From an uncultured delta proteobacterium (GTDB lineage Bacteria > Desulfobacterota > Desulfomonilia > UBA1062), in assembly GCA_963785235.1 (NCBI GenBank), contig CAWAUM010000001.1:288001-352000 (forward strand): a stretch of DNA of 64,000 nucleotides, read 5' to 3'. How positions within the stretch are numbered: position 1 is the first letter of the stretch; every line of letters begins with the position of its first letter. A program made the position numbers and the translations under genes. Shown here piece by piece: positions 5,413-14,440 of the stretch. A model generated the notes under the pieces. The model saw nothing but the letters and a program-made list of their open reading frames with translations, was not told the DNA's origin and made no database searches.

Positions 5413-7524
5413 TTACGATACCCTGTCACCCGGGTCAGGCTCTCCGTCAAAGGTGCAGATGTTCCATGTGTCTCCATGTCCGCCTGCCATGATCATGCCC
5501 TCGGACAACCCGAATTTCATCTGGCGCGGTTTGAGGTTGGCCACTACAATCGCTTTCTTGCCGATAAGTCCGGCCGGGTCGGGATATGCGCCCTTTATGC
5601 CGGCAAAGATCTGGCGGAGACGTCCTTCATTCAGGTCGACCATGAGCCTCACCATCTTGTCAGAGCCTTCTACAGGATGCGCCTCCATGATCTTTCCCAC
5701 CCTGAAATCTATTTTTGTAAAGTCATCGATAGTTATTTCGGCTTGCTTGGCAGGTACAGTCTTTTGCGCAGGCTTTACCTTTTTCTCCGGCTGCTTGGCG
5801 TGGCCTGAGGCCTTCTCGATCTTGGCCCAGGAATCCCGCAGGGTAACGGTCCGGTTAAACACCAGGGTTTTATCCTTTGAATCCTTGGAGTCCACACAGA
5901 AATAACCCTGCCGCTCAAACTGGAAGCACATCCCCGGCTTCGCCTTACCAACGGATGGCTCAAGCATACACCCTTTCAGGGGAACCAACGAATCCGGGTT
6001 CAGGAACTCCTTGTAGTCCTTGCCCGTCTTCTCGGCCTCGGATGCGATATTCTCCACCGTGAAGAGCCTGTCGTACAGCCTCACCTCTGCGGTAAGGGCG
6101 TGTCCGGCAGATACCCAGTGGAGCGTACCCTTCACCTTGCGACCGTCCGGTGCATCGCCGCCTTTTGTGGCCGGGTCGTAGGTGCAGCGGAGTTCTTTGA
6201 TGTTGCCTGTCTCGTCCTTCACCACGCCGGTGCAGGTGATAAAGTAGGCCCCCCGGAGCCTCACCTCTCTGCCCGGTGCCAGGCGGAAGAACTTGTCAGG
6301 AGGGTTTTCCATGAAGTCTTCCTGCTCGATATAGAGTGTCCGGGAGAAGGGCACCATGCGGGAGCCCATGGAAGGGTTGTCCGGGTGATAGGGGATCTCG
6401 AATTCCTCGGTTGTATCTTCCGGGTAGTTCTCGATGGTTACCTTGAGCGGCTGCAGCACTGCCATGACCCTGGGGGTTTTAATGTTCAGGTCCTCCCGGA
6501 TGTGGTACTCAAGCAGTGCCATGTCCACCATGGAGTCCTTCTTGGCCACCCCGATCGTCTCGCAGAATTTCCTGATGGCCGAAGGTGTATAGCCGCGGCG
6601 CCTCAAGCCTGCAATGGTAGGCATGCGCGGGTCGTCCCATCCGGTTACGATGCCAAGATTTACAAGCTCTAAAAGCCTGCGCTTGCTCATCATGGTGTAG
6701 CTCAGGTTGAGCCTGGCGAATTCGATCTGCTGGGAACGGTACATATCGATCTTTTCCAGGAACCAGTCGTACAGTACCCGGTGGTCTTCGAACTCAAGGG
6801 TGCAGATGGAGTGGGTTATCTTTTCCAGCGAATCGGAAATGGGGTGCGCGTAGTCATACATGGGGTAGATGCACCAGTCATCGCCGGTGCGGTGGTGGGT
6901 GGAGCGCAGGATCCGGTAGATGATGGGGTCCCGCATATTGAGGTTGGGCGATGCCATATCGATCCTGGCGCGGAGCACCCGGGCCCCGTCCGGAAACTCG
7001 CCCGCCCTCATGCGGCGGAACAGGTCGAGGTTCTCCTCCTTGCTTCGGTTCCGGTAGGGGCTGTCTTTGCCGGGTTCGGTGAGCGTGCCACGGTACTGCC
7101 TGGTCTCCTCGGCACTCAAATCGCACACATAGGCCAGGCCTTTTTTGATGAGCGTTTCGGCCAGCTCGTAGGTCTTCTCGAAGTAGTCGGATGCGTAGTA
7201 CATCCGCTCTTCCCAGTCAAAGCCCAGCCAGCGGACATCTTCCATGATGGAGTCGAGGTATTCCTGGTCTTCCTTGCTTGGGTTGGTGTCGTCGAAGCGC
7301 AGGTTGCAGATGCCCTTGTAATCGGCTGCTATGCCGAAGTTCAGGCAGATGGACTTGGCGTGGCCGATGTGCAGATAGCCGTTCGGTTCAGGGGGGAAGC
7401 GGGTGTTCACCCTGCCGCCATATTTTCCGTTCTTCATGTGCTCGTTGATGATGGTGCGTATGAAATCAATGGATGCCGGTGCACCCGGTTCCTTCGTGCT
7501 GTCATTGTCAGTAGGCTTTGCCAT
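5413..7524 (-). CDS. glnS: Glutamine--tRNA ligase with C-terminal Trbp111/MetRS-C-like tRNA-binding domain
   Basis: [47 protein letters not shown], then [16 protein letters not shown]...[18 protein letters not shown]. Confidence 0.95.
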
Positions 7525-10168: not shown

Positions 10169-11637
10169 CTATCTCCGACGTCCTCCGAAGAGCGAACCGA
10201 GCACACCTCGAATGATCTGCCTGCCGATCTGGCTGCCGATGGCATGGGAGGCGCTTTTTGCCATTGCCGCAAAGAGGTCTCCGGCCTGGGATTGCTCTTT
10301 GGGCGCCGGTTGACGCTCTAAACGGGACGCTTGTGCTTCTTTCTCATCCGGCTCCGCGCCGGCCTTGAGCTTTTCATACGCCGATTCCCTGTCGATGATC
10401 TTCTCATAGTGGCCATAGATCACCGATCCTTTTATTATCCCGAGCCTTTCTTCCGGGGTCAGAGGAGTCAACCGGCTGTGAGGGGGGCAGATGAAGGCCC
10501 GTTCCACGATTGTCGGCGCCCCTTTCTCATCCAATACCGAGACCAGGGCTTCGCCCACTTCAAGCTCGGTGATGGCCTTTGCCACGTCCAGCTTGGGATC
10601 GGCGCGGAACGTTTCAGCAGCGGCCTTTACGCTTTTCTGATCCCTGGGAGTAAAGGCCCGCAGGGCATGCTGGACCCGGTTCCCCAGTTGCCCGAGAATG
10701 GTCTCCGGCAGATCGAGGGGATTCTGGGTGATGAAATAAACCCCCACACCCTTGGAGCGGATGAGGCGGACGACCTGCTCGATCTTTTCGGTCAGGACCT
10801 TCGGTGCATCGTCGAAGAGCAGGTGGGCTTCGTCGAAAAAGAACACTAATCCGGGTTTCTCCGGGTCCCCCACCTCGGGGAGCGTCTCGAACAGCTCGGA
10901 GAGCATCCAGAGCAGGAAGGTGGCATAAAGCTTGGGGGATTGCATCAGCTTATCGGCGGCGAGGATATTGATGACCCCTTTCCCCTTGGCGTCCGTCTGC
11001 ATGAGGTCCTGAAGATTCAGGGCGGGCTCTCCGAAGAACTTGTCCCCTCCCTGTTCCTCGAGGGACAAGAGGCCTCGCTGGATGGCGCCGATACTGGCGG
11101 CGGAGATGTTTCCGTACTGGGTCTTGAACTGTTCCGCCTGATCGCCCACAAACTTGGAGCATGGACCGCAGGTCTTTCAGATCGAGCAGGAGAAGGCCGT
11201 TGTCATCGGCGATCTTGAATACGAGGGTAAGGACGCCGCTCTGAATTTCATTGAGCATCAGGATGCGGCTGAGAAGCAGCGGGCCCATGTCGGAAACGGT
11301 GGTGCGAACCGGATGGCCCTGCTCCCCGAAGACATCCCAGAAGGCCACAGGGAATCCCTCGAAAGCTGAAATCTTTGAGGCCCAATTTCTGGATCCGCTC
11401 TTTTACCTTGGGGTTTTCGCCGCCGGGAAAAGGCAGCCCGGAGAGGTCGCCCTTCACATCCGCCATAAAAACCGGCATCCCGATGGCGCTGAACTGTTCG
11501 GCCAATGTCCGCAGGGTGATCGTTTTTCCCGTGCCCGTTGCCCCGGCTATAAGTCCATGGCGGTTGGCCATTTTGGGGATGATGGCAATTTCCGAGTGTG
11601 CCTTGGCAATCAGGAGAGGATTAGGATTTGTGCCCAT
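10169..11637 (-). CDS. DUF853/YjgR HerA-like ATPase; two apparent frameshifts (~11363, ~11154)
   Basis: [50 protein letters not shown] across three consecutive frames. Confidence 0.85.
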
Positions 11638-11814: not shown

Positions 11815-11890
11815 TGGTAGTCCCAAGGGGAATTGAACCCCTGTTTACGGCGTGAGAGGCCGTTGTCCTAGGCCACTAGACGATGGGACC
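11815..11890 (-). tRNA. tRNA-Glu(CTC)
   Basis: GGTCCCATCGTCTAGTGG...ACGGC-CT-CTC-AC-GCCGT...GGTTCAATTCC...CCA. Confidence 0.95.
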
Positions 11891-11901
11891 GCACACTACT
11901 C

Positions 11902-11975
11902 TGGCTGGGGGACTAGGATTCGAACCTAGATAAACGGAGTCAGAGTCCGCTGTCTTACCGTTGGACGATCCCCCA
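11902..11975 (-). tRNA. tRNA-Gln(CTG)
   Basis: TGGGGGATCGTCCAACGG...GCGGA-CT-CTG-AC-TCCGT...GGTTCGAATCC...CCA. Confidence 0.95.
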
Positions 11976-12079: not shown

Positions 12080-12095
12080 AGGCATGGAGCTTGCT
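12080..12095 (+). promoter_or_regulatory. Possible sigma54 (-24/-12) promoter
   Basis: AGGCAT-GGAGC-TTGCT; correct GG-N10-GC spacing, about 85 nt before the ATG. Confidence 0.4.
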
Positions 12096-12179
12096 CGTTA
12101 ATGGGAAATGATTAATCTCCATGCTAGGATTTGAGCAAAAGACCTTGTATTGCTCATTAGTCAATGTTATTCAAATTAT

Positions 12180-13400
12180 ATGACCATCAAGGACGACAAA
12201 CTCTATATCGTGATGGTGGGTCTGCCTTCCCAGGGCAAATCCACCGTGGCCTATCGGATGCAGGACATCTTCAAGAAGAACTCCATCCCCACCATGATCT
12301 ACAACAATGGGGAGTTGCGGAGGAAGTACGCGCCTGCAGACACCTGGATGTCAAGCTTCTACAACCCCCAGAATCAGGAGGCCATGGAGCTGAGAAGAAA
12401 GTTTGCCCTCATGAACATGAAACGCGCAAGGCAATACCTGAAGAATAAAGGCCATGTGGCCATACTGGACGCAACGAACGTCAGCCGGTCCAGGCGCAAG
12501 CTGATCGAGGAGAACCTGAAGGACCACCCCATACTCTATATCGAGTGCATCAACAATGATGAGGATATCGTGAATGTAAGCATCAGCCACAAGGTGCGCG
12601 TGCCGGAATTTTCAATGCTCAGCGAAGAACTGGCGGTTAAGGAATTCAAGAAGAGGATTGAATATTACCGGATGATCTATGATCCCCTTCATGCGGAGCG
12701 GAATTTTATTTCCATGGACACCCTGCACAACCGGGTTCTGTCCGAGCAGATCGAAGATCAGCTCCCACTCTATTCCCGCATCAGAGACTGCCTGGTGACC
12801 GATGTAGTGAAAAGTCTCTTCCTCATCCGTCACACCGAGACCTTCTTCAATGTGGAAGACCGCATCGGCGGCGACCCGGACCTCACCCCCAGGGGAAGGG
12901 AACAGGCAAATGCCCTTGGCCGGTTTTTCAGGAACAAGAAGATATCCTACATCTTCACGAGCGAGAAGAAACGGACAATCCAGACGGCCAAGGCCATCAA
13001 GGCCCTCCAGCATGATTGCACTATCGTGCGTCTGGGAGAGTTTAACGAGATCCATGCAGGTATCTGCGAGGGCATGACCTATGACGAGATCCAGCGTTTC
13101 AAGCCTGATATCCATTCCGCCCGCAAGGCGGACAAGTACAACTATGTCTACCCTGATGGAGAGGGTTACGGCACCATGAAGGAGCGGATCAAGATGGGCA
13201 TTAAAAAGGCCTTCTATCTGAATCAGAGGCCCGACAACATCATGATCATCGGTCATAGGGCTGTTAACCGCATGATCCTCTCGCACTTTCTGTACCGCAG
13301 GGAAGAGGATGTGCCCTACATCTACATACCCCAGGACAAGTTCTACCATATTGTGGCAACCCAGGATCGAAAGGTGTTCGAGCTGAATAAGTACGAGTAG
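12180..13400 (+). CDS. Bifunctional 6-phosphofructo-2-kinase/fructose-2,6-bisphosphatase-like protein
   Basis: Kinase half: MVGLPSQGKST, NGELRR, DATN, FKKRIEYY. Histidine phosphatase half: RHTET, RIGGD, KRTIQTA, NEIHAGICEGMTYDEI, DKYNYVYPDGE, GHRAVNR. Confidence 0.85.
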   Translation: MTIKDDKLYIVMVGLPSQGKSTVAYRMQDIFKKNSIPTMIYNNGELRRKYAPADTWMSSFYNPQNQEAMELRRKFALMNMKRARQYLKNKGHVAILDATNVSRSRRKLIEENLKDHPILYIECINNDEDIVNVSISHKVRVPEFSMLSEELAVKEFKKRIEYYRMIYDPLHAERNFISMDTLHNRVLSEQIEDQLPLYSRIRDCLVTDVVKSLFLIRHTETFFNVEDRIGGDPDLTPRGREQANALGRFFRNKKISYIFTSEKKRTIQTAKAIKALQHDCTIVRLGEFNEIHAGICEGMTYDEIQRFKPDIHSARKADKYNYVYPDGEGYGTMKERIKMGIKKAFYLNQRPDNIMIIGHRAVNRMILSHFLYRREEDVPYIYIPQDKFYHIVATQDRKVFELNKYE

Positions 13401-13411
13401 GTATCAGGGGC

Positions 13412-14440
13412 TCAGGTAGCCTTTTCCATGGATTCAAGCGTCTTGACCATGGTGGATGCAGTTTCAAAATCAGGGTTGATTTTCAGGGCATTAATAAAGC
13501 ATTCCTTTGCCAGAAGGTTTTCTCCCATTTCGAGATAGGCCCTGCCCATGTTGAAGTGGATATTCTCATCGTTCGGATCGATCTTCACTGCCTTCTGATA
13601 AACCTTCACGGCATCTCCATGCCGGTTCTGTCTCCGATAGATTATCCCCAAGCTGTTGTATACGTTCGTGGTATCTGGGTTCAGCGAGATGATTTCATTG
13701 AAGATGCCCTCTGCCTTTTCATGCATGTCGCGCTCTAAAAAGATCTCGCCTGCCAGATTGAGATATTTTTCAGCCATAGCGTTGTCGCCCATCTTTACAA
13801 AGACTTCTGCCATGGCTTGGTAGGCCTTGGCGAACAGTTGGTTGATCTGGGTGGCCTTCCTGAAGGCTGCGATGGCATCATCATATTCGGATTTTGCAGT
13901 ATGGATGTACCCGATGTTGTAGTAGACCTCGGCCGATTCCAGAATGGCCAGGATGCTCTGATATTCCTTTATTGCGAGATCGAACAGACCTGCCTTTGTA
14001 TAGGTATCGCCCTTAACCAGGTAGGCCTTTGCCTTCTTGGTGGACGGGGTCATGTCGAATTCCAGGATCCGGTTTATCTTTTTATCAAGAATATCCATGC
14101 TGAGCGGTTCCACTAGGATGGCATTGACCCCGGATTCTCCGGCCTTGATGACATCACTGCGTGTTATCTCGGCAGTCCACAGGATAACGGGCGTATCCGA
14201 ATATTGTGAATCCGAGCGGATAAGTCTCAGCAGGGCCATGCCGTTCATCTCGGGCATATGCCACTGGGCAATGACAACACCGGGATTAACCCTTTTCTTC
14301 ATGATATCCCATCCGCCTGGCCCGTCATCGGCATGATCCATAGTGGTGAAGCCGAGCTTTGTCAGCATGGTTGATACGTTCTTGTGAAAGAAGGTGTTGG
14401 GTCCAATGATAAGGATTCGAATCCCTGGGGCGTTTGCCAT
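13412..14440 (-). CDS. Degenerate receiver domain plus TPR-repeat protein
   Basis: Start MANAPGIRIL after GGAGG; CheY-like N-terminus (WHMPEMNG) followed by several TPRs (YYNIG, YNSLGIIYRRQ, HFNMGRAY). Confidence 0.85.
   Translation of the reverse strand: MANAPGIRILIIGPNTFFHKNVSTMLTKLGFTTMDHADDGPGGWDIMKKRVNPGVVIAQWHMPEMNGMALLRLIRSDSQYSDTPVILWTAEITRSDVIKAGESGVNAILVEPLSMDILDKKINRILEFDMTPSTKKAKAYLVKGDTYTKAGLFDLAIKEYQSILAILESAEVYYNIGYIHTAKSEYDDAIAAFRKATQINQLFAKAYQAMAEVFVKMGDNAMAEKYLNLAGEIFLERDMHEKAEGIFNEIISLNPDTTNVYNSLGIIYRRQNRHGDAVKVYQKAVKIDPNDENIHFNMGRAYLEMGENLLAKECFINALKINPDFETASTMVKTLESMEKAT

Follow-up and report, generated by a model that had tools for sequence, protein, structure and literature searches.

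Fructose-2,6-bisphosphate (Fru-2,6-P2) is commonly presented as a regulator confined to eukaryotes. The closest described systems to the gene reported here are the animal 6-phosphofructo-2-kinase/fructose-2,6-bisphosphatases (PFK-2/FBPase-2) PFKFB1-4, which are bifunctional, and a homologue of these was identified in a 64,000-nucleotide stretch of DNA, termed the window, from an uncultured, anaerobic delta proteobacterium of the phylum Desulfobacterota (assembly GCA_963785235.1, contig CAWAUM010000001.1, positions 288,001 to 352,000). In the Fru-2,6-P2 literature, 'Desulfovibrio desulfuricans' is cited as an exception (Rider et al. 2004, quoted by PMC9721465 in its introduction), and a single bacterial exception is what that introduction still cites. 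The window gene resembles this case in being a homologue in a relative of sulfate reducers of the same phylum, and a protein from a Desulfovibrio sp. metagenome-assembled genome (MAG; P0122, 44% identity) sits in the clade of the window protein. However, where the quoted passage has a single oddity, the gene was found here in 51 of 401 sampled genomes of the phylum, the 51 belonging to 11 family-level groups. In a 2025 review of the phosphofructokinase (PFK) superfamily, all characterised bacterial pyrophosphate (PPi)-dependent PFKs are given as non-allosteric (PMC12203962). A literature search of full main texts found no characterised bacterial PFK-2/FBPase-2. The window gene belongs to a known and already annotated family, bacterial copies of which were noted approximately 20 years ago; what is new here is the breadth of the clade and its vertical inheritance, its position in the tree, the active-site changes specific to it and its near-complete nesting within carriers of class I fructose-1,6-bisphosphatase (FBPase).

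The open reading frame (ORF) covers positions 12150 to 13400 of the forward strand and would encode 416 aa if read from a TTG codon. The start was placed at the ATG at 12180 because close homologues and orthologous loci align from that codon, making it the likely start of a 406-aa protein and the TTG at 12150 an unlikely one. Close homologues among those listed are mostly 404-417 aa in length, and the DNA 5’ of the ATG diverges among orthologous loci through indels in a manner not resembling codons. Profile searches, proposed as a check in a first-pass annotation of this DNA made by a model from the sequence alone, identified an N-terminal 6PF2K domain (PF01591, E value 9.1e-40, 136.8 bits against a cut-off of 27) followed by a branch-1 histidine phosphatase domain, His_Phos_1 (PF00300, 9.3e-36, 123.8 bits against 21.7). 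These are on one chain and in the same order as in the eukaryotic enzyme. No NCBIfam model was passed by the protein, the best of them, cobC, reaching 89.9 bits where the cut-off is 162.9. Stand-alone CobC, PhoE/GpmB and PspA share the His_Phos_1 fold and catalytic core with the window protein, but their matches are far weaker, all falling under the NCBIfam cut-offs, and these proteins possess neither a fused kinase nor the full set of 6-phosphate pocket residues.

A search of the PDB showed residues 9-385 of the window protein to be colinear with 5-380 of human liver PFKFB1 (1k6m, E value 3.5e-65, approximately 380 residues), with PFKFB2, PFKFB3 and PFKFB4/rat testis enzyme matched at about 1e-60 (range to 1e-59; 5hr5/5htk, 2axn and 1bif) and twelve distinct PFKFB chain sequences at E<=1e-58. 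These domain and PFKFB matches are far beyond chance. All seven kinase and phosphatase motifs quoted in the first-pass annotation were recovered in the translation, colinear with PFKFB; counted from the ATG they are GLPSQGKST (14-22), NGELRR (43-48), DATN (97-100), FKKRIEYY (156-163), RHTET (217-221), NEIHAG (289-294) and GHRAVNR (358-364). The likeness to PFKFB1-4 extends to the Walker A motif, DATN, the catalytic lysine, the Fru-6-P (fructose-6-phosphate) arginines, the phosphatase Arg-His...Glu...His series and the 6-phosphate pocket. An AlphaFold2 model, made from a 40-sequence alignment, is confident, with a predicted local distance difference test score of 91.8 and a predicted template-modelling score of 0.83. 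A PDB fold search with this model gave PFKFB entries for all of the first 26 matches, and its predicted phosphatase domain matches that of rat liver FBPase-2 (1tip/1fbt) with a template-modelling (TM) score of 0.91-0.92 and a root-mean-square deviation (rmsd) of 1.9 Å.

Unlike PFKFB1-4, with which identity is only 31-33% in structural alignments, the window protein lacks N- and C-terminal regulatory tails (406 aa compared to 430-530 aa for the solved chains). It begins 13 residues ahead of the P-loop glycine, the solved PFKFB chains extending 30-40 residues further N-terminally, and no regulatory extensions with phosphorylation sites were found, the PFKFB alignment spanning residues 7-9 to approximately 385-390 of its 406. 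It also has RHT rather than RHG, no arginine at position 323, an arginine in place of glutamine after the second catalytic histidine, and a place in a separate bacterial clade.

The alignment used to survey active-site residues combined 50 members of this bacterial clade with 13 sequences from other prokaryotes and 96 representatives of eukaryotes. In the kinase half, the nucleotide site and catalytic set (Walker A GxPxxGK[ST], the aspartate of DATN and the catalytic lysine K138) are present, as is the Fru-6-P pocket, formed by a tyrosine and the arginines of NxGxxRR, ELRR, RxRR and KRI..Y and conserved at 93-99% among the eukaryotes. Residues G14, P16, G19, K20, S21, R47, R48, R72, D97, N100, R105, R106, K138, R159 and Y163 are found in all 50 clade members, with T99 of DATN kept in 86%. 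The phosphatase catalytic set (Arg-His nucleophile, Asn, Arg, Glu and second His) is likewise complete; R217, H218, N224, R265, E290, Y301, R315, K319, Y330, R336 and R364 are kept in 100% of the clade and the second catalytic histidine, H359, in 98%. Within the sugar-phosphate pocket, Y301, R315, K319, Y330 and R364 are clade-invariant; the equivalent of R360 (position 323) is valine in the window protein. The kinase substrate contacts follow the PFKFB3 and testis-enzyme structures, and the positions named here are those regarded as catalytic or substrate-binding in the animal enzymes. The phosphatase positions are assumed to correspond to rat-liver R257, H258, N264, R307, E327, Y338, R352, K356, Y367, H392 and R397, a numbering that is supported because the offsets shift only at gaps of the PDB alignment. 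The first-pass annotation had described both active sites as apparently intact, which holds for the catalytic, Fru-6-P and 6-phosphate residues but not for RHT in place of RHG or for the missing arginine at 323. Loss of Fru-6-P-binding residues, which it had named as a finding that would speak against it, was not seen in the sequence alignment, where these residues are invariant in the 50 clade members.

Pairwise ratios of nonsynonymous to synonymous substitution (dN/dS) against eight orthologues ranged from 0.05 to 0.16 in the kinase half and from 0.03 to 0.12 in the phosphatase half, the single unsaturated pair being the closest (dS 0.30), with values of 0.16 and 0.09, respectively. As dN/dS is low in each, both halves are under purifying selection and are being kept.

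We consider it probable that the window gene encodes a bifunctional Fru-6-P 2-kinase/Fru-2,6-P2 2-phosphatase without regulatory tails, the product of which restrains class I FBPase. A Fru-2,6-P2 cycle appears to be the most economical reading because the residues of both active sites and of the Fru-6-P and 6-phosphate pockets are conserved. From this we infer a substrate, product, target and physiological role. The N-terminal P-loop kinase would transfer a phosphate from ATP to the 2-position of Fru-6-P, giving Fru-2,6-P2, and the C-terminal histidine phosphatase would take the 2-phosphate off again by way of a phospho-His218 intermediate. As a signal, Fru-2,6-P2 would most likely restrain class I FBPase and might possibly tune one of three PfkA-family kinases; such control would avert futile cycling between gluconeogenesis and the breakdown of sugar or glycogen.

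The host genome (3.9 Mb in 13 contigs, 93% complete, with the window on contig 1) carries a single copy of the gene. Of the 24 other genomes in the same family-level group, 20 gave a strong 6PF2K match (E value below 1e-36); the 16 genomes of the sister family contained none. The phylum was surveyed through an even sample of 401 genomes, in which the 51 carriers (host included; E<=1e-15) are concentrated in the 11 groups mentioned above, for example f1 (6/6), f18 (6/6) and f26 (5/7). The description of homologues as scattered in the first-pass annotation does not hold against this distribution. Among the 30 best loci, 29 are 47-100% identical to the window protein at full length, with the remaining one (L030) only 30% identical and of another lineage. 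Relatives by name include Desulfomonilia and ‘Deltaproteobacteria’ MAGs, a Syntrophaceae MAG and the cultured Desulfogranum marinum DSM 2058 (L024, 49%); remoter ones (30-34%) include a Saccharibacteria MAG and Polyangiaceae such as Chondromyces apiculatus DSM 436. Many relatives are publicly annotated as 6-phosphofructo-2-kinase/fructose-2,6-bisphosphatase or as ‘broad specificity phosphatase PhoE/predicted kinase’. In this bacterium the gene is native, and it has been inherited vertically. A search for split or stand-alone forms, directed at shorter relatives of the phosphatase half, yielded 129 matches; the ones listed appear to be pieces of this family, being either on short contigs or marked as partial, and provide no evidence for split genes.

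Among 1.84 billion cluster representatives, 247 matched at E<=1e-30, names being looked up for 30 of these. The prokaryotic sources among the named were a Desulfovibrio sp. MAG, a Nanobdellota archaeon MAG, Myxococcota MAGs and a marine-metagenome cluster including a protein labelled Methylobacterium sp.; the eukaryotic sources were Pygsuia, Nutomonas, Vermistella, Syssomonas, Hanseniaspora, Electrophorus (PFKFB2), Sodiomyces, Cyanidiococcus, Rhodelphis, Mucochytrium, Euglena and Volvox. Trees were built with FastTree (142 rows) and with IQ-TREE (70 rows; LG+C20+F+G4 by posterior mean site frequency, PMSF, in quick and careful runs). The IQ-TREE rows (22 of the window clade, 13 other prokaryotes and 35 eukaryotes) were hand-picked out of the 142 so as to cover the FastTree groups, with the remainder omitted for speed. 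The two methods agree. The phylogeny, also suggested as a check in the first-pass annotation, placed the window protein in a bacterial clade (Desulfobacterota, Desulfovibrio sp., Nanobdellota and one further sequence) that is split off with 100/100 support, apart from the eukaryotes. Outward from it lie a Saccharibacteria-type pair (100/99), then a marine prokaryotic group (91/86), and the outermost group (98/81) takes in each of the 35 eukaryotic rows, among which Myxococcota and L030 are nested. In this unrooted tree, for which no usable outgroup was found, three prokaryotic groups branch successively before the one group with all the eukaryotic rows.

The other prokaryotic lineages, namely the Saccharibacteria-type (L026, P0135), marine (P0196, P0207) and Myxococcota (L027, L028, P0148) proteins, share with the window protein a tail-less architecture of approximately 400 aa and the same catalytic residues. 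They differ in being 30-34% identical to it and in being placed on the eukaryotic side of the long stem of the window clade, with the Myxococcota PFK-2/FBPase-2 nested among eukaryotes while the window clade is not. The 13 such sequences in the residue survey are mostly eukaryote-like (Gly219 in 13/13, Arg323 in 10/13, Tyr369 in 13/13), unlike the window clade. Two members of the tree are of uncertain provenance. L030 (G137 contig 51, 3.5 kb) is a 779-aa open frame with a PFK-2/FBPase-2 core 30% identical to the window protein, which groups with Myxococcota and eukaryote-side sequences and represents either a second independent lineage in the phylum or a contaminant contig. P0123, a 405-aa member of the window clade (41% identity) on a 31-kb contig labelled as a Nanobdellota (DPANN archaeon) MAG, points to either an error in binning or a transfer into an archaeon.

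Class I FBPases, including that of Escherichia coli, bind Fru-2,6-P2 at the active site and are inhibited by it. The host genome encodes one class I FBPase (L005; NF006778, 482 bits against a cut-off of 368), and a profile search of it found no GlpX and no FBPase_3. Across the 401 genomes class I FBPase was found in 216, and by hand count in 50 of the 51 PFK-2/FBPase-2 carriers compared to 166 of the 350 non-carriers; the carrier without it (G259) is a genome 80% complete. This nested pattern, in which many FBPase genomes lack the bifunctional gene, is as expected if a regulator needs its target, and suggests class I FBPase as that target. In five genomes of two related families (L057-L061 in G074, G177, G265, G345 and G293) only 3-6 kb separate the genes for PFK-2/FBPase-2 and class I FBPase, which is a weak neighbourhood hint; unrelated genes on the opposite strand lie between the two, namely a conserved set (HGD-D, metallophosphoesterase, radical SAM and Bax1-I) and M48 peptidase.

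Three PfkA-family genes (L002-L004) are also present in the host genome. One of them, L004, is a PFK of the ATP-dependent type (653 bits with NF005301, for which the cut-off is 400), found in 171 of the 401 genomes; it was considered as a named target and rejected, its co-occurrence being too loose. L002 passes the subfamily model NF002872 only and has GGEDT and PKTIDGD motifs, which by the rule we assume suggest PPi dependence. L003 is a divergent member, below all NCBIfam cut-offs, in which GGQG replaces GGDG, and may be a non-canonical sugar-phosphate kinase. It is situated (G000 contig 7; L003 64-2640) directly 3’ of an ORF ending in what we take to be a glycyl-radical-like motif.

Several observations weigh against the proposed Fru-2,6-P2 cycle and its target. 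Position 219, the glycine of RHG in 95 of 96 eukaryotes, is threonine in the window protein and threonine, glycine or alanine in 24, 24 and 2 of the 50 clade members. Position 323, presumably rat-liver Arg360, a contact for the 2-phosphate, is valine in the window protein and arginine in none of the clade (Val 21, Ile 17) compared to 94 of 96 eukaryotes. Further clade-specific changes are S329G (Gly in 43/50; Ser in 94/96 eukaryotes), Y369H (His in 38/50; Tyr in 93/96), D143E/Y144F (Glu-Phe in 50/50; Asp and Tyr in 91% and 96% of eukaryotes) and N134S (Ser in 29/50; Asn in 86/96). The stem of the window clade is long, at approximately 0.9 changes per site. The whole-chain model compares to crystal structures at a TM score of only 0.49 and an rmsd of 16 Å, and the predicted mutual arrangement of the domains therefore differs from that of the crystal dimers. 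No sugar-metabolism gene was found near the PFK-2/FBPase-2 gene in the window neighbourhood. The carriers, being kin to each other (11 families), make the FBPase co-occurrence overstate its independent support and leave it suggestive rather than a statistical proof, and the link to the ATP-PFK type of L004 is loose (33/51 carriers compared to 138/350 non-carriers).

The substitutions at positions nearly invariant in eukaryotes (219, 323, 329, 369 and 143-144), together with the long stem, which could reflect a shift in specificity, and a literature search that yielded no assayed bacterial member, would fit an enzyme of the same fold and chemistry acting on another phospho-sugar, for example another ketose phosphate, and yielding a signal or metabolite other than Fru-2,6-P2. 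This is unlikely in our judgement, though a serious contender, as the Arg, Lys and Tyr residues lining the Fru-6-P and 6-phosphate pockets of the eukaryotic enzymes are all invariant, and the near-perfect nesting of carriers within class I FBPase genomes fits an analogue of a fructose bisphosphate. RHT and the lost arginine at 323 could also be taken as marks of an effectively monofunctional protein, in which one head, most likely the phosphatase, is weak and the role is mainly regulatory or Fru-6-P-sensing, as in some yeast and plant isoforms; yeast has kinase-only and phosphatase-only isoforms. This we regard as distinctly unlikely: the catalytic Arg-His, Glu and second His are kept in the clade at the frequencies given above, purifying selection on the phosphatase half is even stronger than on the kinase half, and RHT reads as a tolerated variant rather than a disqualifier because 24 of the 50 clade members retain glycine.

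The first-pass annotation had termed the gene eukaryote-type, which is upheld in that it is a full-length PFK-2/FBPase-2 homologue but not in the eukaryotic origin this implies, since the gene belongs to an old bacterial clade of its own. The view that it was recently imported from a eukaryote, or that the assembly is contaminated with eukaryotic DNA, could draw on the 37-40% identity to animal enzymes and on the GC (guanine plus cytosine) content of the gene, which at 0.50 is slightly below that of the flanks (0.54-0.58), yet it is highly improbable and is contradicted by family distribution, synteny and the tree. The gene is flanked by tRNAs and genes of bacterial kind and lies on a large contig, the tRNA pair beside it is retained in 14 of 19 related loci, 20 of 24 family genomes have it, and its clade is monophyletic and outside all eukaryotic rows. 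Its position in the tree means that the gene was not acquired recently from animals, from fungi or from any of the eukaryotes sampled. The low GC, for its part, covers 11.5-16.5 kb and was rejected as an island signal for the gene, to which it is not confined. With the root on the prokaryotic side, eukaryotes would have obtained the fused gene from bacteria. A wider scenario, which we advance as speculative and on balance doubtful, is that Fru-2,6-P2 signalling is native to bacteria, with an old vertical clade in relatives of sulfate reducers and syntrophs gating class I FBPase through a tail-less enzyme, and that the eukaryotic enzyme descended from a prokaryotic ancestor. The finding bears on the origin of glycolysis control in eukaryotes. 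Moreover, a large and conserved bacterial family with apparently working sites and a candidate target would make bacterial use of Fru-2,6-P2 directly testable.

The features of the locus are listed in the table below.

Features of the PFK-2/FBPase-2 locus (positions in the window)
Feature	Position	Strand	Remarks
CDS, bifunctional PFK-2/FBPase-2 homologue	12180..13400	+	406 aa + stop; Pfam, PDB alignment, orthologous loci
6-phosphofructo-2-kinase domain	12180..12764	+	aa 1-195; Pfam PF01591; Walker A GLPSQGKS, NGELRR, ELRR, DATN, RSRR, K138, FKKRIEYY
Fructose-2,6-bisphosphatase (histidine phosphatase) domain	12816..13382	+	aa 213-401; Pfam PF00300; 1tip/1fbt superposition
Phosphatase-domain residues			R217 H218 (RHTET), N224, R265, E290, Y301, R315, K319, Y330, R336, H359, R364
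tRNA-Glu (CUC)	11815..11890	-	Divergent neighbour, upstream
tRNA-Gln (CUG)	11902..11975	-	Divergent neighbour, upstream
Sigma54-like motif AGGCATGGAGCTTGCT	12080..12095	+	2 mismatches to TGGCAC-N5-TTGCW; unsupported
Conserved upstream block CCTTGTaTTGC ... aATGtTATtca	12143..12173	+	Kept in window and closest orthologous loci; ends 7 nt before ATG
Response-regulator receiver + TPR repeats gene	13412..14434	-	Convergent, downstream; marks 3’ boundary of unit, outside unit

As had been described in the first-pass annotation, the gene stands alone, divergent from two tRNA genes, and a convergent receiver-TPR gene follows it. A divergent tRNA pair was found 5’ of the orthologue in the 14 of 19 aligned related loci mentioned above. 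Upstream neighbours on the minus strand are genes for GlnRS, an L,D-transpeptidase, an M15 peptidase and a HerA-like protein as well as the two tRNAs, and downstream the receiver-TPR gene is followed by genes for an omptin-like protein and a PAS histidine kinase.

The possible sigma54 site put forward in the first-pass annotation did not survive scrutiny; its feature began at 12080, which is the start of this motif and not of the gene. Such matches number 32 in the window against 34.35 expected by chance, and the motif is not conserved in the closest orthologous loci (L012, L013, L014), even at one that is 92% identical. The conserved block at 12143-12173 is a possible -35 and extended -10 element, 17 nt apart. 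No Shine-Dalgarno-like run was found between this block and the ATG, and the promoter reading would imply a leaderless or near-leaderless mRNA. A sigma-70 scan called nothing upstream of the gene, the block included. The sediment metatranscriptome run X20 contained only 8% of the sampled words of the stretch; contigs in it that are 88-93% alike span 12128-12469 and 12774-13699 at a depth of 3-6, and one begins 5’ of the putative transcription start. These contigs stem from a relative, with DNA carry-over possible, and establish neither transcription nor a start site. DNA runs containing part of the stretch were labelled as wetland, rock, hot-spring, wastewater and sediment.

Between 11500 and 16500 the GC content amounts to 0.46-0.51, compared to the flank values given above at 5-11 kb and 16-20 kb; this low-GC 5-kb stretch spans the tRNAs, the PFK-2/FBPase-2, receiver-TPR and omptin-like genes and the start of the PAS kinase gene. 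The HerA-like gene (HerA_C/DUF87; 10169-11637, minus strand) is broken over at least two reading frames. Profile positions 9-96 are matched by its ORF at 11248-11637 and positions 159-502 by that at 10169-11149, with a third, overlapping ORF (10950-11348) between the two; either the assembly is in error here or the gene is a pseudogene with a frameshift. A class I Glu/Gln-type tRNA synthetase of 703 aa (5413-7524, minus strand), with an extra C-terminal tRNA_bind domain (PF01588), is encoded approximately 4 kb from the tRNA-Glu/tRNA-Gln pair.

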